DNA of 64,000 nucleotides. It comes from Pirellulales bacterium (GTDB lineage: Bacteria > Planctomycetota > Planctomycetia > Pirellulales > PALSA-1355). A program made the translations under genes and the position numbers. A model generated the notes under the pieces. It searched no databases and was not told the DNA's origin. It saw only the letters and a program-made list of their open reading frames with translations. This document shows, in pieces, positions 18,587-61,349 of this stretch (positions within the stretch are counted from its first letter, which is position 1; each line of letters begins with the position of its first letter). Location of the stretch: the NCBI GenBank assembly GCA_963733035.1, contig CAVTBU010000005.1:258483-322482 (forward strand), read 5' to 3'.

Positions 18587-18672
18587 GTCGCTCAACCTTG
18601 GTCTTCGGTCATGCACTGTACGATGGCCAACATCCGGGGCTACCCCAGGGCGTCGATGCACGTGAGGTACCC

Positions 18673-18849
18673 ATGCGACGATTGCTGATACATACGGCCC
18701 GCTTCTTAAGATCGGAAGACGGCCCCACTGCGGTGGAATACGCGATTCTGTTGGCCTTGGTAATTCTCGTTTGCCTAACGGCAATTCGCGCCTTTGGCAC
18801 CAAGACCAGCAGCTCATTCAGCAAATCAGCACAATCGATTGCCAGCTAA
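18673..18849 (+). CDS. flp: Flp family type IVb pilin (orphan copy)
   Basis: 58 aa reading 'MRRLLIHTARFLRSEDGPTAVEYAILLALVILVCLTAI...'. It has the Flp processing/hydrophobic motif G/xTAVEYA. A GAGG sits 6-7 nt upstream of ATG 18673. It is a paralog of the flp at 60575..60760. Confidence 0.85.
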   Translation: MRRLLIHTARFLRSEDGPTAVEYAILLALVILVCLTAIRAFGTKTSSSFSKSAQSIAS

Positions 18850-21481: not shown

Positions 21482-21570
21482 TAGGGCATGCTCGTTAGAA
21501 CCGTTGCCATCCGTCTTCGCCGCGCAAACCGAGTTCCGCGGCACGCTGCTTGCACTGCCAGCATGCCCTA
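21482..21570. repeat. nested inverted repeats in the ku upstream region
   Basis: The outer arms are a perfect 11-bp pair, TAGGGCATGCT (21482-21492) and AGCATGCCCTA (21560-21570). The inner stem is 6 bp, GCCGCG (21519-21524) with CGCGGC (21537-21542). The element ends 89 nt upstream of the ku ATG. Confidence 0.5.
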
Positions 21571-21659
21571 GGGTTTAATACGTCAACAGCCACCTTAAAC
21601 GCGGTCGAGACGGGGCTTTGCGCAACGACTGGCCGCCTCGAAAAGAGGGACGTGCGGCC

Positions 21660-22532
21660 ATGGCCATGCGCTCGAGTTGGAAGGGCTATCTGAAGCTAAG
21701 CCTCGTCTCGGTGCCCGTACAGGCTTTTAATTCGGCGGCAGCGAGCGGGGGCGAAATCCACTTCAACCAATTGCACTCGGAGTGCCACAGCCGCATTCGC
21801 TATCAAAAGGTGTGCCCAATTCACGGCGAGGTGAGCAAGGACGAAATCGTCCTGGGCTATGAATACGCCAAAGGCAAGTACACGATCGTCGATCCCGAGG
21901 AAATCGAAAAGCTTCGCCGTGAAAACGACCGCGCCATCAACATCGCAGAGTTTATCGCCCCCGATGCGCTCGATCCGGTTTATCTCGACGGGCGAAACTA
22001 CTACCTGGTTCCCGATACTCCGGTCGGGCAAAAGCCGTACGCCGTGCTGCACGACGCCATGACCAAGCGCGACCGGCACGGGCTTGCCCGCGTGATTTTC
22101 TCCGGCAAGGAGCAGCTCGTGCTCGTGCGCCCGATGAACGGCCTGCTGATGATGTCGATGCTCAACTACGAAAGCCAGATTCGCAAACCGGAAGCCTTCG
22201 AAGACGAGGTACCGCGGCCCAAAGTTTCCTCTCAGGAGGTGAAGCTGGCCGAGATGCTGATCGACGCCTCGACGTCCAAGAAATTCGATTTCTCGAAATA
22301 TCAAGACTTGTATACTGAGCGATTGACCGAGCTGATCAACGCCAAGATCGAAGGGAAAGAGGTCGTGGCTCCGCCGTCGGAGGAAGAGGTACCAGTCATC
22401 AATCTGATGGACGCACTCAAGCAAAGCCTGAACAAATCCGGCAAACGAGCCGCTACCGAAAGAGCAAAACCCGCCAAAAAAATGGCCGCCAGCCGACGAC
22501 AAACGACACCCGGCAAGCGAAAATCTTCGTAA
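21660..22532 (+). CDS. ku: Ku protein (non-homologous end joining)
   Basis: 'MAMRSSWKGYLKLSLVSVPVQAFNS...IHFNQLHSECHSRIRYQKVCPIHGEV...GYEYAKGKY' and a Lys-rich C-terminal tail. An AAGAGGGA sits about 11 nt upstream of ATG 21660. Confidence 0.9.
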   Translation: MAMRSSWKGYLKLSLVSVPVQAFNSAAASGGEIHFNQLHSECHSRIRYQKVCPIHGEVSKDEIVLGYEYAKGKYTIVDPEEIEKLRRENDRAINIAEFIAPDALDPVYLDGRNYYLVPDTPVGQKPYAVLHDAMTKRDRHGLARVIFSGKEQLVLVRPMNGLLMMSMLNYESQIRKPEAFEDEVPRPKVSSQEVKLAEMLIDASTSKKFDFSKYQDLYTERLTELINAKIEGKEVVAPPSEEEVPVINLMDALKQSLNKSGKRAATERAKPAKKMAASRRQTTPGKRKSS

Positions 22533-22612
22533 ACGGCCCGCCGCTTGGAACCGGGAAAACGGCCACGGCGTTATTTGATCCGAGACCGAGTACAGCAACG
22601 GAGTGTAGACGC

Positions 22613-23782
22613 GTGGCTCAAACGCTCGCCAACACCAACTGGCTCCAAGGCAAACGCGTTGTCCTGGCCGGGCGGTTAGCCTCGATGACCCGTGATGAAG
22701 CAGCGCAATTGATCGCTGCTCACGGAGGTGTGCTTGCCCGCTCGATTACACGATCCGCGTCGGTTGTGATCGTGGGCCGCGAGGGCTGCCCGCTGGCGCG
22801 CGATGGTCGCCCTAATCGCAGACTGCGACGCGCGCTGGCACTCGTCAAACAAGGACACGAGGTGGAAATCCTGCCCGAGGAGGAGTTGCTAGCCCGGCTG
22901 CACCGCCCCACGGATCGTTTCCAGCATCACTTCACGCTGCGCGAGCTGTCGGAAATGTTAGCCGTGTCGACTGAGCGGCTGCACGTGTGGCTCCGCGCGG
23001 GACTGATTGAACCGGCCGAAATCGTCGACGGCATACGCTACTTCGAGTTTCGCCAGGTGGCCGGCGCCAAGAGCTTGTGTGAACTCGTGCGCAGCGGCGT
23101 GACCACCGCCCGCTTGCGACAGAGCCTGCGACGTCTGCGCAAGTGGCTCGGCGATATTGAGGATCCACTCTCGCAGTTAACGACGCTCGAGCACTCTCGC
23201 CAACTCGTCGTGAGGCTGGATAATGGCCAACTCGCCGAACCGAGCGGTCAATTGCTGCTCGCGTTCAGCGCCGAACCGGCCGAGACGCTGCCGACTTCCG
23301 TCCCCTGGACCGCTGAAAGCAGGTCGGTCGAAGAATGGTTCGAACTCGGCTGTCAGGCCGAGGACCGCGAGGACTTTCAGCAGGCGACCCATGCGTTCCG
23401 CCAAGCGCTGCTCGCCGGCGGCCCCGCGGCCGAGATCTCCTTCAACCTGGCCAACGTACTCTGTTCGCTGGGTGACTACGCTCGAGCCAGCGAACGCTAT
23501 CGGCAGGTGCTCGAGCTGGATCCGAACTTCTGCGAGGCGTGGAACAACCTGGGAACCGTACTCACTTACGAAGGTGAAAATGCCGAAGCGGTGACAGCTT
23601 ATCGGCATGCGTTGCGGCTGCACGCAAGCTATGCTGACGCGCACTACAACCTGGCCGATACGCTCGATGACCTCGGGTGCACTGACGAGGCCGCGGAACA
23701 TTGGCGGAGATATCTCGAACTCGAACCGCGCGGGCCGGGTGCCGAATACGCACTCGACCGTCTCCATCAGCGGCCGCGTTAG
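22613..23782 (+). CDS. BRCT domain - MerR-type HTH - TPR repeat protein
   Basis: N-terminus is LigA-like BRCT ('LQGKRVVLAGRLASMTRDEAAQLIAAHGGVLARSITRSASVVIVGREG'). The middle is a MerR-like HTH ('FTLRELSEMLAVSTERLHVWLRAGLIEP...IRYFEFRQV'). The C-terminus has 3-4 TPRs ('AEAVTAYRHALRLHASYADAHYNLADTL...'). GTG start, 80 nt after ku on the same strand. Confidence 0.8.
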   Translation: MAQTLANTNWLQGKRVVLAGRLASMTRDEAAQLIAAHGGVLARSITRSASVVIVGREGCPLARDGRPNRRLRRALALVKQGHEVEILPEEELLARLHRPTDRFQHHFTLRELSEMLAVSTERLHVWLRAGLIEPAEIVDGIRYFEFRQVAGAKSLCELVRSGVTTARLRQSLRRLRKWLGDIEDPLSQLTTLEHSRQLVVRLDNGQLAEPSGQLLLAFSAEPAETLPTSVPWTAESRSVEEWFELGCQAEDREDFQQATHAFRQALLAGGPAAEISFNLANVLCSLGDYARASERYRQVLELDPNFCEAWNNLGTVLTYEGENAEAVTAYRHALRLHASYADAHYNLADTLDDLGCTDEAAEHWRRYLELEPRGPGAEYALDRLHQRPR

Positions 23783-32584: not shown

Positions 32585-35500
32585 TCACCGGAAATCGCGA
32601 GACTGCGAGCGCAGCCCTCGTAAACGCTCGGATAGATCTTCCAGCTTCGTCACCAGCACGTGGATTACCTGCCCTTGCCGCTGCAGTCGGCCGTGGGCCA
32701 CGAAAGTCGAAGCCGTGCGTGCTACGCGATAGAACTTCTGCCACACGTCCTGGCGAATGATAAGGTTTGCCGTGCCGGTTTCGTCTTCGAGCGTAACGAA
32801 CGTGATGCCCTTGGCCGTGCTGGGCCGCTGCCGCATCAGCACGATGCCCGCCACGCGGACGTGATGGTTTTCTGGATGCGTTGCCAACCGCTCCGACGGC
32901 AGGATGCCCCAAGCATCGAGTTCTTCGCGCACAAACTGCATTGGATGGGCCTTGAGCGAGAGACCGGCCGTGCGATAGTCGGCGAGTACTTCCTCCTCCA
33001 TCTCCAATTCCGGCAGCTGCACGGCCGGCTCGTCTTCGTTCGCTAGCGCTCCAAACAACGGCATCTCGCGCGGCTTCTTTTCCTGCGACAATGCCTGCCA
33101 GAGTGCTCCGCGGCGATTCAGCTGCAGCGAGACAAACGCATCGGCCTCCGCCAGTCGGGATGCCACGGCCCGGCTCAACCGCGTGCGACGCGCGAAATCG
33201 TCCCAACCGAGAAAAGGCCCGATTGCCCGCGCTGCCTCAATCGCTCGGGCATGAGTCTCCGACAGCCCGTTGACAAACCGCAGCCCCAGCCGCAATGCCC
33301 CATCCTCGAGCGTCGAATCCCAACCACTGGCATTCACATCCACGGGCCGCACTTCGACGCCGTGCTCCTGGGCGTTGCGCACGAGTTGGGACGGTGCGTA
33401 AAAACCCATCGGCTGGCTGTTCAAAACCGCGGCGCAGAAGGCAGCCGGGTAATAGTGTTTCAGCCACGCCGACACGTAGACCAATAGCGCAAAGCTGGCC
33501 GCGTGCGATTCGGGAAAGCCGTATTCGCCGAACCCGCTGATCTGGCGAAATACGGCCTCGGTAAACTTGAGGGTCAGGCCGCGACGTTGCATGCCGTCGA
33601 GCAACTTCTGGCGAAACTGCTCGATGATACCCGGTCTTCGCCAGGCTCCCATCGCGCGGCGCAGTTGATCGGCCTCGCCGGGCGTGAACCCGGCCGCAAC
33701 CACGGCCAACGACATCGCCTGCTCCTGAAACAGGGGCACGCCAAGCGTTCGCTTGAGCACCTCGCGAATCGCCTCGTTGGGATAGGCAACTTCCTCCTCG
33801 CCCAACCGCCGGCGCAAATAAGGGTGCACCATATCTCCCTGAATCGGACCGGGTCGCACGATCGCCACTTCGATGACCAGATCGTAAAACGTCCGGGGCC
33901 GCAAGCGCGGCAGCATGCTCATTTGGGCCCGGCTTTCGATTTGAAACACGCCCATCGTATCGGCCCGGCCGATCATGTCGTACACGGCCTCGTCCCCTTC
34001 GGGAATCGCTGCTAGCGAAAGCTCGCGGCCGGTGTGCTGCTCGACCAGTGCAAAGCACTTACGAATCGCCGTCAGCATGCCCAGCGACAGACAATCGACC
34101 TTCAGGATGCCGAGCTCATCGAGATCGTCCTTGTCCCACTCGATTACCGTGCGGTCTTCCATGGCCGCGTTTTCGATCGGCACCAGTTCGCAGAGCGGTC
34201 CCTGAGTCATCACCATGCCGCCGACGTGCTGTCCCAAATGCCGCGGGAAACCAACCAGTTCGCCCACCAGGTTCACCAACCGCCGGCCCAGAAACGAATC
34301 GGGATCGATGCCCACGTCGCGGCAGCGCACGGGCAGCGCCTGGTCCAGATGGTGCCCTTCCAAACTCTTGGCCAATGCATCAACTCGATCAAGCGACAGG
34401 CCGAGTGCCTTGCCCACGTCGCGCACGGCCGAGCGCGGTCGGTAGGTAATCACTTCGGCGGTCATGCCGGCTCGCTCGCGGCCATACTTGTCGTACAAAT
34501 ATTGCAACACCTCTTCGCGCCGCTCGTGTTCGAAATCGATGTCGATGTCGGGAGCCTCGTTCCGCTCGCGGCTGAGAAACCGCTCGAACAGCACGTCCAG
34601 CCGCCCCGGATCGACAGCCGTGACTCCCAGACAAAAACAAACCGCCGAGTTGGCCGCACTGCCGCGGCCCTGGCATAAGATGCCACGCCCGCGGGCGAAT
34701 CGCACCAGGTCGTACACGGTCAGAAAATACGCCTCGTAGCGAAGATCCGCAATCAAGGCCAGCTCGTGCTCCACGAGCGAGCACACCTTGTCGGGAACGC
34801 CCTGTGGATAGCGCTCGCGGCGCCGGCCCAGGTCAAGCGGGTTAAATATTGCAGCGGTGTTTCGCCCGGCGGTGCCAATTCCTCGGGATACTCGTAACGC
34901 AACTCGTCCAGCGAGAACGTCGACCGCTCGGCAATTTCCAGCGTGCGGGCGATGGCCGCCGGTGCCGCGGCAAAACGTTCGGCCATTTCCGCGGGCGACT
35001 TCAAATAACGCTCGGCGTTGGCGAACAACCGATCTCCGGCTTCGGCCACGGTCATCCCCAGGCGAACCGCCGTGAGCGTGTCCTGCAAACCGAGCCGCCC
35101 GCGGGTGTGATAGTGGACATCACCTGCCGCCACCAGTGGCAATCGCGAGCGCCGTGAAAGATCGACCAACCGCGCAATCACCGTTCCGTCATCTGCTCCT
35201 CTCGTCAGTTCCGCCGTTAGATAACCACGATCGGCGAACAGTTCGCGATACCGGCCGAGCGTGCGAAGTACACCGCGCCCAGTCGCTGCGCCACGGACAT
35301 CGCCGGGTAGCACGCCGCACAACAAGCCTTCGGCATGTTGTGCAAGCTCGTCGAATGAAAGCCGGAATTCTCCTTTGGGGGCTTGCCGGCGACCGCGTGT
35401 GATCAACCGCGCCAACCGACCGTACGAGGCTCGATCGGTCGTCCAAAGCAGCACCGGTGGAGCATCGAGCAAATGGATCTCGGCACCGATGATGAGCCGC

Positions 35501-35682
35501 AGTTGCAAATCCTTCGCCGCCCCGTGCGCCCGCACTACGCCGGCCAGCGAGTTGCGATCCGTCACCGCCAGCGCAACCAGCCCCAATTCCGCCGCCCGCA
35601 GCGCCAGTTCATCCGGATGCGAAGCCCCTTCCAGAAATGAAAAGTTCGTTTTGCAATGCAACTCGGCATACCGCGGCCCCAA
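32585..35682 (-). pseudogene. dnaE2: error-prone DNA polymerase III alpha-like DnaE2 (ImuC); frame broken near 34816/34817 (or assembly indel)
   Basis: The N-terminal fragment 34753..35682 (PHP domain) reads 'MGPRYAELHCKTNFSFLEGASHPDEL...'. The C-terminal fragment 32585..34786 reads '...LVEHELALIADLRYEAYFLTVYDLVRFARGRGILCQGRGSAANSAVCF...'. One nt added in 'gccgc|gagcgc' restores '...WAGAAERYPQGVPDKVCSLVEHELALI'. The combined length of about 1030 aa fits DnaE2. Confidence 0.85.
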
Positions 35683-35799: not shown

Positions 35800-37491
35800 T
35801 TACAAAAATTGGCCATGCAAGAACCACTGGCCGGCGTTTAGTTCTCGGAACAGCCAATACCGCTGGCCGCTTTCTGTCTCCACCTGGTAGTAGTCGCGGC
35901 GAATGCATTGGCCGCGCCACCAGCCAGTTTCGATTCGCTCGGGGCCCCAGTGATGTACGATGCGATGGTCCGCGCCGGCGTGACAAAATTTCACCGGCGG
36001 GCCGTCGGGTACAACGGAAATCACGTCCAGCGTTTCGGGCTCCGGCCGAAGGCTCAGCGGCCGATCGCCCGGCTGCAGCGATGAGCGAGAGCCATCGGGG
36101 CCTGAGGATGCCACGCGGCGTTTGGCATGGCGGGTCTTCAAACTTGCCACGGGCTTGTACTGGCAGGCGAACTCCGGCTGCGCGCCGGAAAGCAGCCATG
36201 GCCGCACCACGGCATGCGCTCCCAGGCGATTGCTTAACCGGTCGACCAGCGCCGCCAGCTCGCGCGGCGACTCGCGATTTTCGTTCCCCAACTCGGCGAA
36301 AAATTCCTGCTGCTGAAACTCCAGGGCATCCAGCGCCAGCACTTCGAAGCGAATCGCCACCAGTGGCTCACGAAACCGCACCCCATCGAGCTTCAATCGC
36401 ACCAGTTCGCCCACGTGTCGCTCGGACGCGCTCGGTCGATACAGGCCGATGACAAATTCCAGGGCACTGTCCTGCTCGGGGACGAAACGGCAAGCCAAGC
36501 GTAACACTCCCCGCCGCTCGCGGGCCAATGCCTGGCAAACCCGCGCGACGAGTTGCTCGACCACCCACTCGATCATCTCGCGGCGGCCGGTGGGATGCTC
36601 GAGCAACCACTCGAACGTCCACTCTGGCGGCACGTCTCGGGCCACGATCGCTTCGGCCGCTGCCCCCAGGACCTGATCGAGCCGCAGCAGCACCAGCGGA
36701 CCGAACCGCGCCAGCAGCGTCTCACGCGGCAGTGCCGCCAATTGTTCGATGCGTTTGATTCCCAGCTCTCCGAACAAGAAGCACGTCTCGGCCGGCAATC
36801 GCAGCGCCGCCGGCGGCAGCGGCGCGAGTGCCGACGCGGTTTCTTCCGCCGGCACCAACAGCGGCTGGCCAAGCGCCCTCAAGATCGACGCCGCATCGAG
36901 CGCCGCCCTCGCATCTGCCAGCGGCGTAAAATGCGTCGCGGCCCAGGCGGCCCCAAGCGTATCGGCCAGTGCCACGCGAGCCACCAATCGGCGGCGGCGA
37001 AAATCCGTCACGATTCGCCGGGCAAGCGCCGGCTCACCCCCGCAAAGCGGCCCTAATCCCGTGACGTCCAGCAGCAAGCTATCCGCCGGTGCCGTGTCCT
37101 CAATGCCAGCCGCTTCGATGCCGACCGTGGGAGCAAACCGCTGGCAATCGTCGGCCAGCGCCTCGAGCGCCAAACGATCAGCCACTGGATCAGCCATCTC
37201 CAGGTGGAGTTGTTCGCAATGGCCGGCAGCCGTTGGCTGGTCCGTGGCGATTCGCAGCGCCAGGGCAGTCGCTTCGGCCAACGGCATCCCCGGTCGAATG
37301 CCGCCTGCACTCCGTGGATCCCAATTGCTGGCAGCCGCCTGATCCAATCGCTGGCAATAAGCCGTGACTTTCGCCCCGCCAGACGCGTGCAACTCGTAGA
37401 GCACAACGGCCCGCCGACTAAGCTCGGCGCGAGCGGCGGCGAGTCGTTGCAGCGGCCATTGAGGGAGCCAGATGCAGAGAGCCCGTTTCAT
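35800..37491 (-). CDS. imuB: ImuB (Y-family polymerase-like mutasome subunit)
   Basis: Start at ATG 37491 ('MKRALCIWLPQWPLQRL', the typical ImuB N-terminus), because the upstream 98 codons of the ORF look non-coding. The C-terminus reads 'HHWGPERIETGWWRGQCIRRDYYQVETESGQRYWLFRE'. It sits between imuA and dnaE2. Confidence 0.8.
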   Translation of the reverse strand: MKRALCIWLPQWPLQRLAAARAELSRRAVVLYELHASGGAKVTAYCQRLDQAAASNWDPRSAGGIRPGMPLAEATALALRIATDQPTAAGHCEQLHLEMADPVADRLALEALADDCQRFAPTVGIEAAGIEDTAPADSLLLDVTGLGPLCGGEPALARRIVTDFRRRRLVARVALADTLGAAWAATHFTPLADARAALDAASILRALGQPLLVPAEETASALAPLPPAALRLPAETCFLFGELGIKRIEQLAALPRETLLARFGPLVLLRLDQVLGAAAEAIVARDVPPEWTFEWLLEHPTGRREMIEWVVEQLVARVCQALARERRGVLRLACRFVPEQDSALEFVIGLYRPSASERHVGELVRLKLDGVRFREPLVAIRFEVLALDALEFQQQEFFAELGNENRESPRELAALVDRLSNRLGAHAVVRPWLLSGAQPEFACQYKPVASLKTRHAKRRVASSGPDGSRSSLQPGDRPLSLRPEPETLDVISVVPDGPPVKFCHAGADHRIVHHWGPERIETGWWRGQCIRRDYYQVETESGQRYWLFRELNAGQWFLHGQFL

Positions 37492-38218
37492 GATGCTTAC
37501 CTCGCCAGCTATGCAAACCGTGCCACGCTCTCGGTTCGGGAAGCTCCAGTTCGATCGCGCGGCCAGTTTGCCCCATGCGCGAGCGCAGCAGCTCCACCCG
37601 TAGCCGCCGCGTGCGGATCGACTGGGTCGCCGGGCGCCGAAGCGGCTCGACCCCCAGTCGCAACTCGGCCCAGGAAGGCTCAGCCCGGGCCTCCGGTCCG
37701 CGCAACAAAAAACCCAACACGCCGCTGCCTTCGGCGGCCAACTGCCAACGGCGGAACGCATGATCATCGGCCCGCTCGACCGCACACCAGACGACCGCCA
37801 CGCCGCGCGAGCGAAGCACCTGGTCGAGTGCCCAATCCTGATCGGCGTCGCTGCCGGGCCGCACCACGATCAGTTGTTCGAGCCGAATGCCCAGACCAAT
37901 CGCGGCCGGAGGGTAAAACCGCCGTGTTCGATCGATCACCACCAGCGATCCCCCGACACTCAGTGCTTCGCATGCCGCCAATAGTGCGAGGGTACCCGCC
38001 CCGCTGGCGTCGCCCCTTCCTAGCCATTCCACCAGGGTTCCCCGGCGAAAGCCTCCCTCGGACAGCAACGCATCGAGTTCCGCCTGCCCACTGGAAATCA
38101 CTTCGCCCGAACCCACACTCCAGCGTGTCCCTTCGATCTGGCGCATGCGCTCAGCCAGCGATTCGAGGACGGCGGCCCGCTGTGGGCTAGAAAGATCGCA
38201 CTGGTGGAGTTGAGTCAT
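37418..38218 (-). CDS. imuA: ImuA (RecA/SulA-fold translesion-synthesis protein)
   Basis: 'ISSGQAELDALLSEGGFRRGTLVEWLGRGDASGAGTLALLAA...LIVVRPGSDADQDWALDQVLRSRGVAVVW' fits the ImuA pattern. Start at ATG 38218 ('MTQLHQ'). The 3' end overlaps the imuB start by 74 nt, so its last ~25 codons are uncertain. Confidence 0.75.
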   Translation of the reverse strand: MTQLHQCDLSSPQRAAVLESLAERMRQIEGTRWSVGSGEVISSGQAELDALLSEGGFRRGTLVEWLGRGDASGAGTLALLAACEALSVGGSLVVIDRTRRFYPPAAIGLGIRLEQLIVVRPGSDADQDWALDQVLRSRGVAVVWCAVERADDHAFRRWQLAAEGSGVLGFLLRGPEARAEPSWAELRLGVEPLRRPATQSIRTRRLRVELLRSRMGQTGRAIELELPEPRAWHGLHSWRGKHHETGSLHLAPSMAAATTRRRSRRA

Positions 38219-38406: not shown

Positions 38407-39312
38407 TCAACGCTTGTCGGACAACGCCTGGCGACGCTCATGAGCCCGGCGGATCAAGGGCGACTCGCGGGCCTTGCGGGCCGCCGTGTAGGCCGTATCG
38501 GCCAGTGTGCCGGCCAGTTCCATGCGACCGGCCTGCTCAGCCTGATCTGAAAGTGCCAGCGCTGCCGATGCGGCCTTTGCTGCCGAGTCCGTGCTCACCA
38601 GACCGGCAATCGAAGCCCCCAGTGCCTCGCTCTTGAGTTCCAACAGATCGACTGCAAACGTTTTATCTAGCGCGTCGATGGCGGCCAGCGCCGTCACAGG
38701 ATCACCACCCGAAATGGCCCATTCGCGAGCTTCGTCGAGGGCCGCATACTGCTCGCTGAGTCCTTTGGCACTCCGAGCCGTCTTGAGTATTTGGGACGCC
38801 AAGCGCGCCTTCTGCCGCCCCGACTTGGCAGCCAGGATCGCATCGGCAAACTGTCCCTGAATCTTGTCGCGCGCAGCGTCGACCAGAGCGGCGGGGGGCA
38901 CTTTTTGGCGGTGCTCGCTCAGCGGCGGACCGTCCAACAGCGGCAAGAGCGCGCCGACTTCCATGCCAGCCGCCTTGGCCTGTTGCCACAGCGCTCGCGC
39001 GCGTGCCCGATCACCGGCCGGATCGACGGCCTGAAAGGCTCCGTAAAACACCTGAGCCTGAGGGGCGCGCTCATCGGCGCTGGCGTGGGCGAAAAACAGT
39101 GCCAAGCCGGCCGGCAGCGTGGCCACCGTATAATCGCGCCGCTGCCCCTCGATGAACAGCCCCACGCGATCTGGCCCCACTTCGACGATGGCTGCCCGAT
39201 TGCCGTCCCACTCAATCTCCTCGGTCGTCTCGTACTTCTGCCAACCGGAACGTACCGCCGCAAAAAACAACCCAAGCTGCTCACTGAGTGCGCAGCGTGG
39301 CGACTTCGCCAT
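38407..39312 (-). CDS. hypothetical protein (Ala-rich helical); possibly the C-terminal part of the J-like protein upstream
   Basis: 301-aa ORF with protein-like composition ('LFFAAVRSGWQKYETTEEIEWDGNRAAIVEV...'). Its first 32 nt overlap the end of ORF 39281..39958. No family recognised. Confidence 0.55.
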   Translation of the reverse strand: MAKSPRCALSEQLGLFFAAVRSGWQKYETTEEIEWDGNRAAIVEVGPDRVGLFIEGQRRDYTVATLPAGLALFFAHASADERAPQAQVFYGAFQAVDPAGDRARARALWQQAKAAGMEVGALLPLLDGPPLSEHRQKVPPAALVDAARDKIQGQFADAILAAKSGRQKARLASQILKTARSAKGLSEQYAALDEAREWAISGGDPVTALAAIDALDKTFAVDLLELKSEALGASIAGLVSTDSAAKAASAALALSDQAEQAGRMELAGTLADTAYTAARKARESPLIRRAHERRQALSDKR

Positions 39313-40271
39313 GTCGAGACTCGGCGGGAAGATTCTTTTCCGCCGCGTCGAGTGCCCGGTTTGCCGCGGTCACGTTCCGCGATACCAGCGCGGTGCGTGC
39401 TTGTTGTAGCGCGCCCTCGAACGCAAACTCCCGTTCCATATCAACGGCTGAATCGTTCACCGCGGCAACGCGGGCCGCAGGGGGCTGGTTCGACGACTTG
39501 TCGCGAGGCGGAGCGGCAACGTCGCTCGGCGGCTGCGCCGCCGGTTGTTTCACCTCGATTGACGTTGATAGTTCGGCCGTCGCGGATGGCTGCGTCGAAG
39601 ACGCTCTCACAAGAGACCCTCCCTCGACAACCGCATCGGCCCGCGCGGCGTGGGTCGAACTCTCCGGCTCGACACCTGGCGCCGCGATCGAATTTGCAAC
39701 CGCCGGTTCGTGCGTGGGAGCCACCACCGACTGCGCAATCGGGTTGCCTTCGACATTCCACCGCCAATACGCGATACCGGTGAGGATCAGCAACAGTCCG
39801 CCGGAAATCCCCAGCGCAATCTTCGGGCCGCTGAGCGTCGAAGCCTGCCGCCGACGGGCGAAGTTCATCCGCTGCTCGGTCCGGGCAATTTCTTCCCACG
39901 GCTCTTCGCGCGGAATGCTCGGATGGCGCGTCGGCCGCCACGGGAATCGACTTGGCAACAGGCGATCTCAACTCGGTAGCACTCGCAATGTTGTATTTGA
40001 GTCGCAGTTTTTCGTCGTACTGCGCCCGGGCTTGCGGATCGAGCAAGCATCGCCGGGCAGCTTCTAGCTGTGCGAGCAAGCGCTGCTGAAGTTCTTCGTG
40101 AGCACCCTGCGAAAGTGCGCTGACGCGGGCGATCGTGAGTTCCGCCGCGGCGGTTATTATCTGTGGGTCGGCGGTGAACACCGGCAGGCCGAACACACGA
40201 TAGTAATCCGCCCCGGCACGCCCACCGTCGATGCCGAGCCACTCGCGATACGGATCAAACGAATTGCCCAC
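39281..40271 (-). pseudogene. J-domain-like (no HPD) membrane protein; frame switch somewhere in 39900-39960 (or assembly indel)
   Basis: ORF 39441..40271 begins 'MGNSFDPYREWLGIDGG...DYYRVFGLPVFTADPQIITAAAE...LLDPQARAQYDEKL', the recurrent Planctomycete J-like N-terminal module, then degenerates. ORF 39281..39958 in another frame supplies a basic stretch plus a TM helix ('ARRRQASTLSGPKIALGISGGLLLILTGIAYW') and a plausible tail. Confidence 0.5.
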
Positions 40272-60574: not shown

Positions 60575-60760
60575 CTAGCTGGCCGTGGTGCCCATCGAGC
60601 CGGCCACGTTGCTGAACGTGGTTTTGGCCTTCGAGCCCAACGAGGTAATTGCCGTCAAGCAGACGACGATGATCAATGCGAGCATCACCGCGTATTCGAC
60701 TGCTGTGGGACCATCTTCCGAAACGAGGAAACGTTGCATCTTCTTGGCAAGGCTCTTCAT
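60575..60760 (-). CDS. flp: Flp family type IVb pilin (locus copy)
   Basis: 'MKSLAKKMQRFLVSEDGPTAVEYAVMLALIIVVCLTAITSLG...'. A GGAGGA sits 6 nt upstream of ATG 60760. It is the first gene of the tad locus. Confidence 0.9.
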   Translation of the reverse strand: MKSLAKKMQRFLVSEDGPTAVEYAVMLALIIVVCLTAITSLGSKAKTTFSNVAGSMGTTAS

Positions 60761-61349
60761 GGAATCCTCCGCTGCGGCCACTCGCACCCCGCGGGGTAAA
60801 TATGCGAGCTATTGGCCGAAAATTGTCAGTGGGGCTGTTGCAACCGCGGTCCCGGCCTTGCGGCCGACACTCGCCTGCGTTGCGGTTACCCTGGCCCCAA
60901 ATTCGAAACGATCGCCTCCCCAGACGAGACTTTCATCCGGGTCCACCGCACGAGCGGCTTCACCGGGGTGATTGTTTTGTCACGCACGCCGCGTACAAAC
61001 GCGAGTGAACGCCACTCACATTGACTGACGCGCGCGACAGACAGTCATCCCTTCGGTAGCCAGGCTGCCACGCCGCTTAATGAGGCGGACGTGGTCCACG
61101 GCTTTGCGTCCCGGCCTCGCGACCGGTTTGCCCTTCTCGAGGATGAAGAGGCTGCAGGCCTCCCACGCAAGTGCCTTCGAAATGGCCCGATGTGACGGCG
61201 AAATTGGTTTGCCGGGAATCCGGCCGCTTCGAAAGGTGCTTACGCTTTTCGATGTCCACCAGGGACATCTCGACGGTCGATGCTTTCGTACCGCCCGTCT
61301 ACATTGAAAACTAGGTCGCATCCGCCGCTTGTCAAACTGCGAGTGAAAA

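Follow-up and report, generated by a model that had tools for sequence, protein, structure and literature searches.

A BRCT, MerR-like and TPR protein as a conserved companion of Ku and ligase genes in Planctomycetota and Spirochaetota

Introduction

Non-homologous end joining (NHEJ) in bacteria has been described as a pathway of Ku plus LigD only (PMC7969030, PMC6379672, PMC5124664). Which partner, then, accompanies a ku gene that has no ligase gene beside it? The question is raised by a 64-kb stretch of Pirellulales DNA (the whole of the stretch that was analysed, hereafter the window), in which ku is followed on the same strand by the gene of a protein, here called X, that combines a BRCT domain, a MerR-like winged helix-turn-helix (wHTH) and TPRs. 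An earlier note on this DNA had described X as being paired with ku instead of ligD, and had proposed it to be either an adaptor of end joining or a regulator of ku.

Methods

Relatives of X were collected as 60 loci, one genome per species, picked solely by similarity to X. Neighbouring genes were called with GC3 guidance, since clustering of all open reading frames (ORFs) was dominated by spurious high-GC frames. For the tblastn search of the window, the queries were a stand-alone ligase, two LigD proteins and a divergent ligase. As the full-length model of X retrieved TPR proteins only in Foldseek, residues 1-235 were modelled separately for the BRCT and wHTH matches.

Results

The ku-X pair and its surroundings

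The ORF list, Pfam (Ku, 2.1e-40) and NCBIfam (TIGR02772 Ku_bact, 263.9 bits against a cutoff of 150) agree on a canonical Ku gene with a same-strand frame closely behind it, as first described (Table 1). The Ku protein, which ends in the C-terminal tail ...AKKMAASRRQTTPGKRKSS, is 78% identical to that of the related locus L001. No plus-strand terminator is predicted between ku and X (22533-22612), and the GTG start of X is preceded by GGAG at a distance of 9 nt.

Table 1. Features of the ku-X region in window coordinates
Feature	Position	Strand	Remarks
17-bp imperfect palindrome TGCTTGCA-C-TGCCAGCA, candidate operator	21547..21563		97 nt upstream of the ku ATG
ku, bacterial Ku end-binding protein	21660..22532	+	290 aa from the ATG at 21660; start 21618/21660 in the ORF list
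ku-X spacer	22533..22612	+	80 nt
X, 389-aa BRCT/MerR-like wHTH/TPR protein	22613..23782	+	ORF list, Pfam, NCBIfam, AlphaFold2
BRCT domain of X, residues 1-95, LigA/RFC1 class	22613..22897	+	PDB profile, Foldseek
MerR-like wHTH of X, residues 105-195	22925..23197	+	Pfam, PDB profile, Foldseek
Motif LVVRLxxGQLAEPsGQLxFDF of X, residues 196-217	23198..23263	+	Candidate docking motif; predicted short strands
Four TPRs and capping helix of X, residues 239-385, near consensus TPR	23327..23767	+	Pfam, AlphaFold2, Foldseek

Homologues of the ligase, LigD, PE and PrimPol were not found within the 64-kb window (best tblastn E-value 0.28-0.6), which bears out the statement that it holds no LigD-like ligase, polymerase or phosphoesterase gene. 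An imuA-imuB-dnaE2 cassette that had been placed some 9 kb away stood in part: a dnaE2-like gene (32585-35682, minus strand; Pfam PHP, DNA_pol3_alpha, finger and HHH_6), split into two overlapping ORFs, lies 8.8 kb downstream, but the two ORFs upstream of it gave no Pfam match, so that imuA and imuB were not borne out.

Architecture and family of X

The domain search returned the architecture claimed for X, with Pfam matches to BRCT, MerR and TPR, and the AlphaFold2 model (pLDDT 87) lays the domains out as in Table 1, with a disordered linker (residues 217-233) ahead of the TPRs. Among NCBIfam models, the BRCT domain (PF00533, 28.7 bits against a cutoff of 21.3, residues 11-65) matches those of LigA and Pol III epsilon over their BRCT part, and its profile matches in the PDB are the BRCT domains of RFC1 (2.9e-08) and LigA (2.5e-06). 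By structure, the BRCT domain of LigA (rmsd 1.6 Å over 90 columns, 29% identity) is followed by that of RFC1, DNA-bound models included, and weaker matches comprise the XRCC1 and Lig3 BRCT domains and chains of NHEJ complexes. The positions of the phosphate pocket, which from the PDB-profile alignment and the RFC1 literature we take to correspond to RFC1 T415, G416, R423 and K458, are occupied in the X family by T19 (60 of 87 sequences), G20 (87/87), R27 (77/87) and R47 (63/87); the window protein carries A19 at the Thr/Ser position.

The MerR-like domain (MerR_1, PF13411, 34.9 bits against a cutoff of 21.6, residues 107-174) is internal rather than N-terminal and resembles GlnR, TnrA and CarH in PDB profile searches and DNA-bound NmlR, MtaN, BmrR, GlnR and RacA in Foldseek. 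Within its recognition helix, R122 is at least 90% conserved and W126 is invariant. The AlphaFold2 models lack the long antiparallel coiled-coil dimerization helix after the wHTH: a short helix at 165-179 is followed by a second short one at 183-194, and then by strands and disorder. The motif that comes next is modelled with a pLDDT of 53-69. Among 87 sequences, G212 and Q213 never vary, and conservation is 90% or higher at R201, G205, L207 and F218. The TPRs (pLDDT 91-98) score 78.5 bits with TPR_2 in four stretches (residues ~237-370), also four with TPR_1, and superpose on consensus TPR proteins with an rmsd of 1.1-1.6 Å, OGT and MamA being matched as well. No XRE-type HTH or RNPP-family match was found among the best 25 Pfam and NCBIfam matches listed.

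The X family is uniform in architecture and comprises at least 472 clusters at 50% identity (E <= 1e-30). Among the best 150 matches of the BRCT-MerR module in 1.84 billion representatives, which span 154-509 aa and nearly all measure 360-430 aa, no fusion to Ku or a ligase was found. Long forms of X at L016, L057, L005 and L013 proved to be over-extended ORFs in high-GC DNA and not fusions. A short form without the BRCT domain occupies the same ku-lig-X position at L046, L048, L053 and other loci. Databases name the family only 'TPR repeat protein' or 'MerR regulator', and literature searches found no papers on it; that no characterised example of the architecture is known, as the earlier note had put it, accords with these searches.

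Gene neighbourhoods

A Ku and/or ligase gene directly adjoins X on the same strand at 45 of the 60 loci. Their arrangements are ku-lig-X (27 loci), ku-X with LigD adjacent (four), ku-X only, as in the window (six), lig-X on a contig cut upstream (three) and a divergent ligase, C13, followed by X (five); at the other 15 loci, the 6-10 kb around X contain no NHEJ gene. Ku lies upstream of X on the same strand at 37 of the 60, and also at L060, where the match to X covers the TPRs only. All Ku matches fall 56-2079 nt upstream of X, and Ku was never found elsewhere in flanks of about 20 kb. X almost always stands directly after the ligase gene, or after ku if no ligase lies between, and the ligase-X junction is an overlap of 4-8 nt or a gap of 4-12 nt at L011, L032, L035, L036, L039, L048, L053, L054 and L058, and a 1-nt overlap at L029 and L030.

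LigD or another ATP-dependent ligase is encoded near X at 39 of the 60 related loci, usually as ku-lig-X closely followed by a convergent LigD-like gene, or as ku-X-ligD, and a pairing 'instead of ligD' is therefore a misleading description. X comes on top of the ligase machinery and does not take the place of LigD, and the ku-X pair of the window is a reduced arrangement of the cluster.

The linkage of X to NHEJ genes persists through several gene-order variants and down to 32-35% identity of X, in Pirellulales, Gemmataceae, Phycisphaerales, Brocadiaceae and Spirochaetia, with protein identities of 32-78% across the linked loci. X is a conserved member of ku/ligase/LigD clusters in dozens of species of Planctomycetota and Spirochaetota, and this gene order supports a functional link with NHEJ. 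The test of neighbourhood conservation that had been suggested was thus strongly positive, and the pairing recurs in related genomes when these are approached from X, and it is lineage-restricted when they are approached from Ku: X occurs in about five of 17 Ku contigs with sufficient downstream DNA, and was not found within 6 kb of a Ku gene whose product is 66% identical to that of the window. Nine metagenome contigs yielded X downstream of ku independently.

Ligases, LigD-like proteins and shared tails

The stand-alone ligase beside X, encoded directly after ku, has about 300 aa and the Pfam domains DNA_ligase_A_M and DNA_ligase_A_C, and the LigD proteins near X contain LigD_N, a ligase domain and LigD_Prim-Pol. 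The motif I lysine, motif V and the OB domain are missing from every one of the 20 full-length LigD-like proteins encoded at loci with a stand-alone ligase. LigD-like proteins of this kind have E-x-x-F-x-G-x-R where motif I would stand. Judged by its sequence, the ligase domain of LigD in ku-lig-X loci is dead; the LigD proteins of L019, L034 and L040, loci without a stand-alone ligase, are intact. Where the LigD-like protein is ligase-dead and the ligase is encoded separately, some means of recruitment would therefore be needed.

A C-terminal tail motif, KMAPS...KKSG, with the basic form K-M/L-A-P-S ... K-K-S/T-G, is common to X-linked Ku and the C13 divergent ligase. It is absent from three ku-lig loci without X (L116, L120 and L121), although this correlation with X comes from a small and phylogenetically confounded sample. 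The five divergent-ligase loci encode a 205-aa protein and no Ku, and the C12 protein of the C12-C13-X operons has no Pfam or PDB match.

A palindrome upstream of ku

The palindrome in Table 1 overlaps a -35-like TTGCAC, and TTTAAT lies 18 nt downstream. Its consensus is TGCTWGCA-N-TGCWAGCA, and alignment shows it kept upstream of ku in L001, L081, L082 and L083. With up to two mismatches, it has ten matches in 1.75 Mb of loci, nine of them upstream of ku, X or a C12-C13-X operon and the tenth overlapping one of these. The window contains the exact pattern once and five matches with up to three mismatches, where 0.92 would be expected; a three-mismatch copy lies upstream of the dnaE2-containing operon. 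At L002, where X stands alone, the palindrome lies 81 nt upstream of X, and it precedes the C12-C13-X operons of L029, L030 and L044. It is also found upstream of ku in L096, L097 and L119, where the contig stops too close behind ku to show whether X follows, and upstream of ku genes without an adjacent X in L082, L115 and L125.

No family-wide operator was found upstream of ku: the sole palindrome is lineage-specific, its paired half-sites occur at only 11 of 109 ku loci, and in other lineages the region upstream of ku consists of plain -35/-10-like boxes or the end of an upstream DUF72 gene. To judge from its distribution, the palindrome seems to belong to a lineage-specific factor, perhaps a repressor of the SOS type, rather than to X. 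As to a known LexA box, the paper found on such motifs (PMC4951493) describes none for Planctomycetes, and the copy ahead of the dnaE2-containing operon is no more than suggestive.

Discussion

The reading preferred here, with modest confidence and with a MerR-type regulator as its main rival, is that X is a lineage-specific NHEJ accessory and a candidate adaptor at broken DNA ends, coupling a ligase to Ku-bound ends; this choice is tentative and falls somewhat short of an even chance. The BRCT domain, of the LigA/RFC1 class, and the MerR-like wHTH would hold X on DNA at or near a 5'-phosphate end or nick; the BRCT region of Rfc1 helps to form a 5'-DNA-end site (PMC9293004). A protein partner, for which the basic C-terminal tail common to Ku and the divergent ligase is a candidate, would be bound by the TPR domain and/or the conserved GQ motif. 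That a MerR fold can be a protein-binding module is known from CbpM, which is encoded downstream of its partner (PMC4063869). X may in this way bring the separately encoded ligase together with Ku-bound ends, and the need for it would be greatest where a stand-alone 300-aa ligase coexists with a LigD-like protein without a ligase active site. In the window genome only ku-X is left of the cluster, and a ligase partner, be it LigD, a stand-alone ATP ligase or LigA, would have to be encoded outside the 64 kb.

Several observations weigh against such an adaptor. A quarter of the X genes (15/60) have no NHEJ gene within 6-10 kb, and many loci with ku or ku-lig do without X, which is therefore no core requirement. 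The window BRCT has an alanine at the Thr/Ser position of the phosphate pocket. Furthermore, the clearest domain assignment in X is the DNA-binding domain of a transcription factor, and a regulator would fit the palindrome that the window's lineage conserves in the promoter region of ku. It is accordingly conceivable, if rather unlikely, that X is a MerR-type transcription factor that regulates its own NHEJ operon and itself in the manner of HspR, its signal input being the TPR domain (binding Ku, another protein or a peptide) or the BRCT domain (sensing DNA ends). In favour of this stand the significant MerR_1 match, the closest solved relatives (GlnR, TnrA, CarH, NmlR, MtaN and BmrR), which are true regulators, and the conservation of the recognition-helix Arg and aromatic position (R122 and W126). 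An HTH joined to TPRs is a known layout of ligand-controlled regulators such as the RNPP family, where an N-terminal XRE-type HTH precedes the TPRs, whereas the HTH of X is of the MerR type and follows a BRCT domain. The palindrome lies upstream of ku (window, L001, L081 and L083), of X (L002) and of C12-C13-X operons, and its 17-bp geometry resembles the TnrA/GlnR box, TGTNA-N7-TNACA. It overlaps the -35 box, however, instead of sitting midway in a 19-20 bp -35/-10 spacer as MerR-type operators do; it occurs at ku genes that have no adjacent X and is missing from most X-linked ones, yet the recognition helix is conserved family-wide. The wHTH of X is internal and lacks the antiparallel coiled coil that defines MerR-type dimerization and promoter distortion, the helix at 183-194 having only 12 residues, and we know of no transcription factor with a DNA-end-type BRCT domain. 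The overlapping stop and start codons of ligase and X suggest production in matched amounts, which also counts against a regulator. X does stand last in its cluster, as does hspR, whose product is a MerR-family repressor encoded in the dnaK operon and modulated in its activity by an operon product; HspR and CbpM share with X a MerR-like protein encoded by the distal gene of an operon to whose products it is tied (PMC4063869), but they are small coiled-coil dimers without BRCT or TPR, and X has no long coiled coil.

Less probable by a clear step is that X acts with ligases on DNA ends or nicks outside classical Ku-dependent joining, in gap or nick repair or end protection, with Ku as a mere frequent neighbour. 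X follows a ligase gene (27 ku-lig-X, three lig-X and five C13-X loci) more often than it directly follows ku (ten loci), the five loci with the divergent ligase and the 205-aa protein have no Ku, a further 15 have no NHEJ gene nearby, and its BRCT class is common to nick-sealing LigA and gap-binding Rfc1. Nevertheless, 37 of the 45 linked loci do contain Ku, which is the sole repair gene beside X in the window and in six others, and the Ku-like tail of the divergent ligase suggests that end joining there follows the same logic and differs in how the ends are bound. A chance neighbourhood of ku and a generic TPR protein, to which the many Ku loci without X and the annotation of the family only as a TPR repeat protein might lend some colour, is highly improbable and is effectively refuted by the neighbourhoods: 45 of 60 independently sampled species keep X by Ku or ligase in the same orientation, through several gene orders and at 32-78% identity, and Ku never lies elsewhere in the flanks.

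Set against the Ku plus LigD systems of Mycobacterium, Bacillus and Pseudomonas, the clusters described here share a canonical Ku (TIGR02772) and, in the related loci, a PE-ligase-PrimPol LigD or separate ligase and LigD-like genes by ku; they differ in having a third conserved gene, X, and in the window ku is without a ligase. NHEJ is also known in split form, with separate Lig, Pol and PE genes of the archaeal Methanocella type and stand-alone LigDom genes in actinomycetes. The stand-alone ATP-dependent ligase gene of about 300 codons directly after ku recalls this form, but here PE and Pol stay fused around a dead ligase-like domain, and X follows the ligase. In RFC1 (p140) and LigA, which provide the best sequence and structure matches of residues 1-95 of X and appear to share the conserved G, R and R/K pocket positions, the BRCT domain is part of an enzyme, whereas X is non-enzymatic, has it as its N-terminal module and can do without it in the short-form relatives; as these occupy the same ku-lig-X position, the BRCT domain is inessential to the shared function.

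Eukaryotes assemble end-joining and break-repair complexes through BRCT domains, as between the Lig4 BRCTs and XRCC4, the XRCC1 BRCT and Lig3, and the Pol lambda/mu BRCT and Ku-DNA. X is likewise a BRCT-containing non-catalytic protein genetically tied to Ku and ligase, although it has a single BRCT of the LigA/RFC1 class together with a MerR-like wHTH and TPRs; beyond the BRCT fold it has no sequence relationship to XRCC4, XLF or XRCC1, so that the comparison is one of analogy and not evidence of homology. A bolder and doubtful extension would make X a third structural factor of prokaryotic end joining, a BRCT scaffold that binds DNA ends and the Ku/ligase tail and loads a separate ligase, as a counterpart of XRCC4/XLF/XRCC1-type factors in a four-part system of Ku, Lig, X and PE-pseudoligase-Pol.

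Teaching and models alike treat bacterial NHEJ as a minimal two-protein pathway, Ku and LigD, and X adds a conserved gene to its clusters. Bacterial end joining probably has an extra conserved partner, X, in these lineages, which suggests that in some large phyla (Planctomycetota and Spirochaetota) the pathway takes a more elaborate form. This bears on how a ligase is recruited where LigD's own ligase domain is dead, and on NHEJ genes as aids to genome editing in non-model bacteria.

The ku–X locus

Judged by its sequence, the first gene of the pair encodes a canonical bacterial Ku, which scores 263.9 bits against TIGR02772 (cutoff 150) and which, read from its internal ATG, begins with MAMRSSWKG, as in homologues. 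The gene for X, the 389-aa BRCT/MerR-like winged-HTH/TPR protein, follows on the same strand after 80 nt, a gap in which no forward-strand terminator is predicted. The ORF list, Pfam and TIGR02772 agree with the earlier note on this pair, and its claim that the window lacks a LigD-like gene also holds: no ligase or LigD gene turned up in the 64 kb when one stand-alone ligase, two LigD proteins and one divergent ligase served as tblastn queries (best E-value 0.28–0.6). The flanking genes, coding for an LRR protein, an MscS-type channel, a MarR regulator, a NUDIX protein and a 3-keto-disaccharide hydrolase, are all unrelated to repair.

Features of the window and of X (domains in residues of X)
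Feature	Position	Strand	Basis or remark
17-bp palindrome, TGCTWGCA-N-TGCWAGCA	21547–21563		upstream of ku; also in four close relatives
ku	21618–22532 (304-aa ORF); ATG 21660, 290 aa	+	Pfam Ku, 2.1e-40; NCBIfam TIGR02772
Ku C-terminus examined for tail motif	22440–22532	+	
X	22613–23782, 389 aa	+	ORF list; BRCT, MerR_1, TPR by Pfam
BRCT (X)	residues 11–65		Pfam, 28.7 bits
MerR_1 (X)	residues 107–174		Pfam, 34.9 bits
TPR (X)	four stretches		Pfam
dnaE2-like polymerase	32585–35682	-	Pfam; 8.8 kb downstream of X
dnaE2-like, polymerase core ORF	32585–34786	-	
dnaE2-like, PHP domain ORF	34753–35682	-	
presumed imuB	35800–37785		no Pfam match
presumed imuA	38407–39312		no Pfam match
palindrome copy, 3 mismatches	40062–40078	-	~100 nt upstream of operon ending in dnaE2
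Flp-pilin-like ORF	18598–18849	+	from translation only
Flp-pilin-like ORF	60575–60787	-	from translation only

An imuA–imuB–dnaE2 cassette 9 kb away had also been proposed. Its dnaE2 part is real, though broken into two ORFs that lie in different frames, with a 34-nt overlap; this could be due to a frameshift, a sequencing error or a pseudogene. The imuA and imuB parts lack confirmation, because neither ORF upstream of dnaE2 has a Pfam match at E <= 0.001. Elsewhere in the window, two small Flp-pilin-like ORFs share ...EDGPTAVEYA[IV][LM]LAL[VI]I[LV]VCL..., the second adjoining an apparent pilus-assembly gene cluster at 50–60 kb.

Domain organization of X

The three domains that the earlier note attributed to X all pass the Pfam gathering thresholds, and literature searches gave no account of the family or of the BRCT–MerR–TPR architecture, in line with its statement that no characterised example was known. 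An AlphaFold2 model built from 87 homologues (mean pLDDT 87) places the BRCT domain at residues 1–95, the winged HTH at 105–195, short strands at 196–216, a disordered linker at 217–233, and four TPRs with a capping helix at 239–385.

The N-terminus aligns to the BRCT portion of the NCBIfam models of LigA and Pol III epsilon, which are among the bacterial BRCT examples given in a recent review (PMC10386641). The top PDB match of the N-terminal half in profile searches is the BRCT domain of RFC1 p140 (2.9e-08), followed by those of LigA, while Foldseek, queried with a separate model of residues 1–235, returns the LigA BRCT first (rmsd 1.6 Å, 90 columns, 29% identity), next RFC1 BRCT structures, some of them bound to DNA, and after these XRCC1 and Lig3. 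The predicted BRCT domain of X belongs to the DNA-contacting class; the Rfc1 BRCT region contributes to a 5'-DNA-end site (PMC9293004). Across the family the putative pocket positions are conserved as G20 (87/87), T19 (60/87), R27 (77/87) and R47 (63/87), and X of the window carries Ala19.

The winged HTH matches GlnR, TnrA and CarH in sequence and DNA-bound NmlR, MtaN, BmrR, GlnR and RacA in structure; the long antiparallel coiled coil of MerR type is absent from the models. A segment modelled with lower confidence carries the conserved motif LVVRLxxGQLAEPsGQLxFDF, in which GQ is invariant, and the TPR domain closely resembles consensus TPR (Foldseek).

Gene neighbourhoods of X and of Ku

The family to which X belongs is large, and its members are of uniform length. 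A word-indexed search gave 474 matches, whose only names are 'tetratricopeptide repeat protein' or 'MerR regulator'; nearly all the complete ones measure 350–435 aa, the shorter entries being apparently truncated. In addition, 472 clusters at 50% identity match a BRCT–MerR–linker profile (E <= 1e-30). With the X alignment as sole query, 80 loci were fetched from a set with one genome per species, and 60 encode true relatives; neighbours were identified by tblastn searches for domains of Ku, ligase and LigD and by GC3-guided gene calling and clustering.

Ku and/or a ligase lies beside X in 45 of the 60 loci, which bears out the proposed link of X to NHEJ. The commonest order is ku–lig–X (27 loci), lig being a stand-alone ligase of ~300 aa (DNA_ligase_A_M and DNA_ligase_A_C); ku–X has an adjacent LigD in four loci (same strand in L034 and L040, convergent in L019 and L027) and stands by itself, as also in the window, in six. 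Three loci show lig–X with the contig cut upstream, five show C12–C13–X, C13 being a divergent ligase, and 15 have no NHEJ gene within 6–10 kb. All Ku matches lie on the same strand, 56–2079 nt upstream of X, and by Pfam, which also bears out the stand-alone ligase, neighbours of 680–880 aa combine LigD_N, ligase and LigD_Prim-Pol domains. X is nearly always directly 3' of a ligase gene, with 1–8 nt overlaps or 4–12 nt gaps. The linkage spans Pirellulales-like, Gemmataceae, Phycisphaerales, Brocadiaceae and Spirochaetia genomes and is kept at X identities as low as 32–35%.

A short form, MerR–TPR without BRCT (~290–310 aa), fills the X slot of ku–lig–X in many loci, after the ligase gene (L025, L042–L058, L063). 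About ten such loci have a DUF72 (PF01904) gene immediately 5' of ku and in the same orientation (including L042, L043, L045, L050, L052, L053, L054 and L056), with a TGGTATCCT box between the two.

The reciprocal search started from Ku and covered 80 loci on metagenome contigs. Nine contigs carry X downstream of ku, but of the 17 with at least 2.5 kb downstream only ~5 have it. The order ku–lig without X occurs in L116, L120, L121 and L156, and L082, whose Ku is 66% identical to that of the window, has no X within 6 kb. Both directions of search therefore describe X as a lineage-restricted addition to NHEJ clusters, neither a universal NHEJ part nor a replacement for LigD; the suggestion that it stands 'instead of ligD' is not supported by the 27 ku–lig–X loci and the four with LigD.

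Where a locus has a stand-alone ligase, its full-length LigD-like proteins (20 in all) without exception have the motif I lysine replaced (for example EMEFAGRR versus the expected E[IV]KFDGYR) and lack motif V and the OB domain; they are predicted phosphoesterase (PE)–pseudoligase–PrimPol proteins. Their genes (L005, L007, L013, L014, L026, L028, L032, L035, L036, L039, L043–L056) are mostly convergent, downstream of X; LigD is intact in L019, L034 and L040, all without stand-alone ligase. Given these ligase-domain losses, the common system is Ku, Lig, X and PE–pseudoligase–Pol.

A Ku-less operon precedes X in L029, L030, L041, L044 and L059. Its ~205-aa C12 has an acidic C-terminus (...MDFDMI) and no Pfam or PDB match; C13 (550–680 aa, RNA_ligase and DNA_ligase_A_C matches) has a Lys-rich tail ending as Ku tails do (...KKKSG). 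Examination of the Ku C-termini of the window, L001–L060 and L086–L158 gave the X-linked tail K-[KM]-[ML]-A-[PA]-S ... basic ... [KR]-K-[ST]-[GS], also found on the C13 ligases; in three ku–lig loci without X, Ku lacks it and ends right after an NLMEALK motif.

Possible functions of X

X is very probably tied functionally to end joining, and of the earlier reading this link and both functional ideas, adaptor and regulator, stand. The interpretation we tentatively favour is that of an adaptor, for which we infer a mechanism: the BRCT and winged HTH would keep X bound to DNA, at an end or close to one, a partner, possibly the tail common to Ku and C13, would be bound by the TPR or GQ motif, and a separately encoded ligase would thereby be coupled to Ku-bound ends. 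Counting against it are the short form without BRCT in the same slot, the 15 X loci without NHEJ linkage and the many Ku systems without X.

The main rival, a MerR-type regulator encoded in its own operon like HspR, is somewhat less likely. With up to two mismatches, the palindrome has ten matches in 1.75 Mb of loci, all in ku/X-operon promoter regions (further sites at L001:8955, L002:9920, L044:6206, L081:825, L082:4563 and L083:2429). These matches include one that lies 81 nt before X in L002, a locus in which X has no such partner genes, and ones that precede three C12–C13–X operons. It follows lineage, not X presence: of 109 ku loci only 11 have paired half-sites ahead of ku, some of these with no X adjacent (L082, L115, L125), and the palindrome is missing from most ku genes linked to X. 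Also against a regulator are the missing coiled coil, the internal HTH, a BRCT class not known from transcription factors and the tight coupling of the X gene to the ligase gene. In CbpM, a MerR fold acts as a protein-binding modulator, its gene lying downstream of its partner's (PMC4063869).

Bacterial NHEJ is described as a Ku and LigD system (PMC7969030, PMC6379672, PMC5124664). The closest known systems are this two-component NHEJ and the split NHEJ of archaea or actinomycetes, and eukaryotic BRCT-mediated ligase-complex assembly resembles X by analogy only. The pathway is a known one with an uncharacterised, conserved extra component, X.
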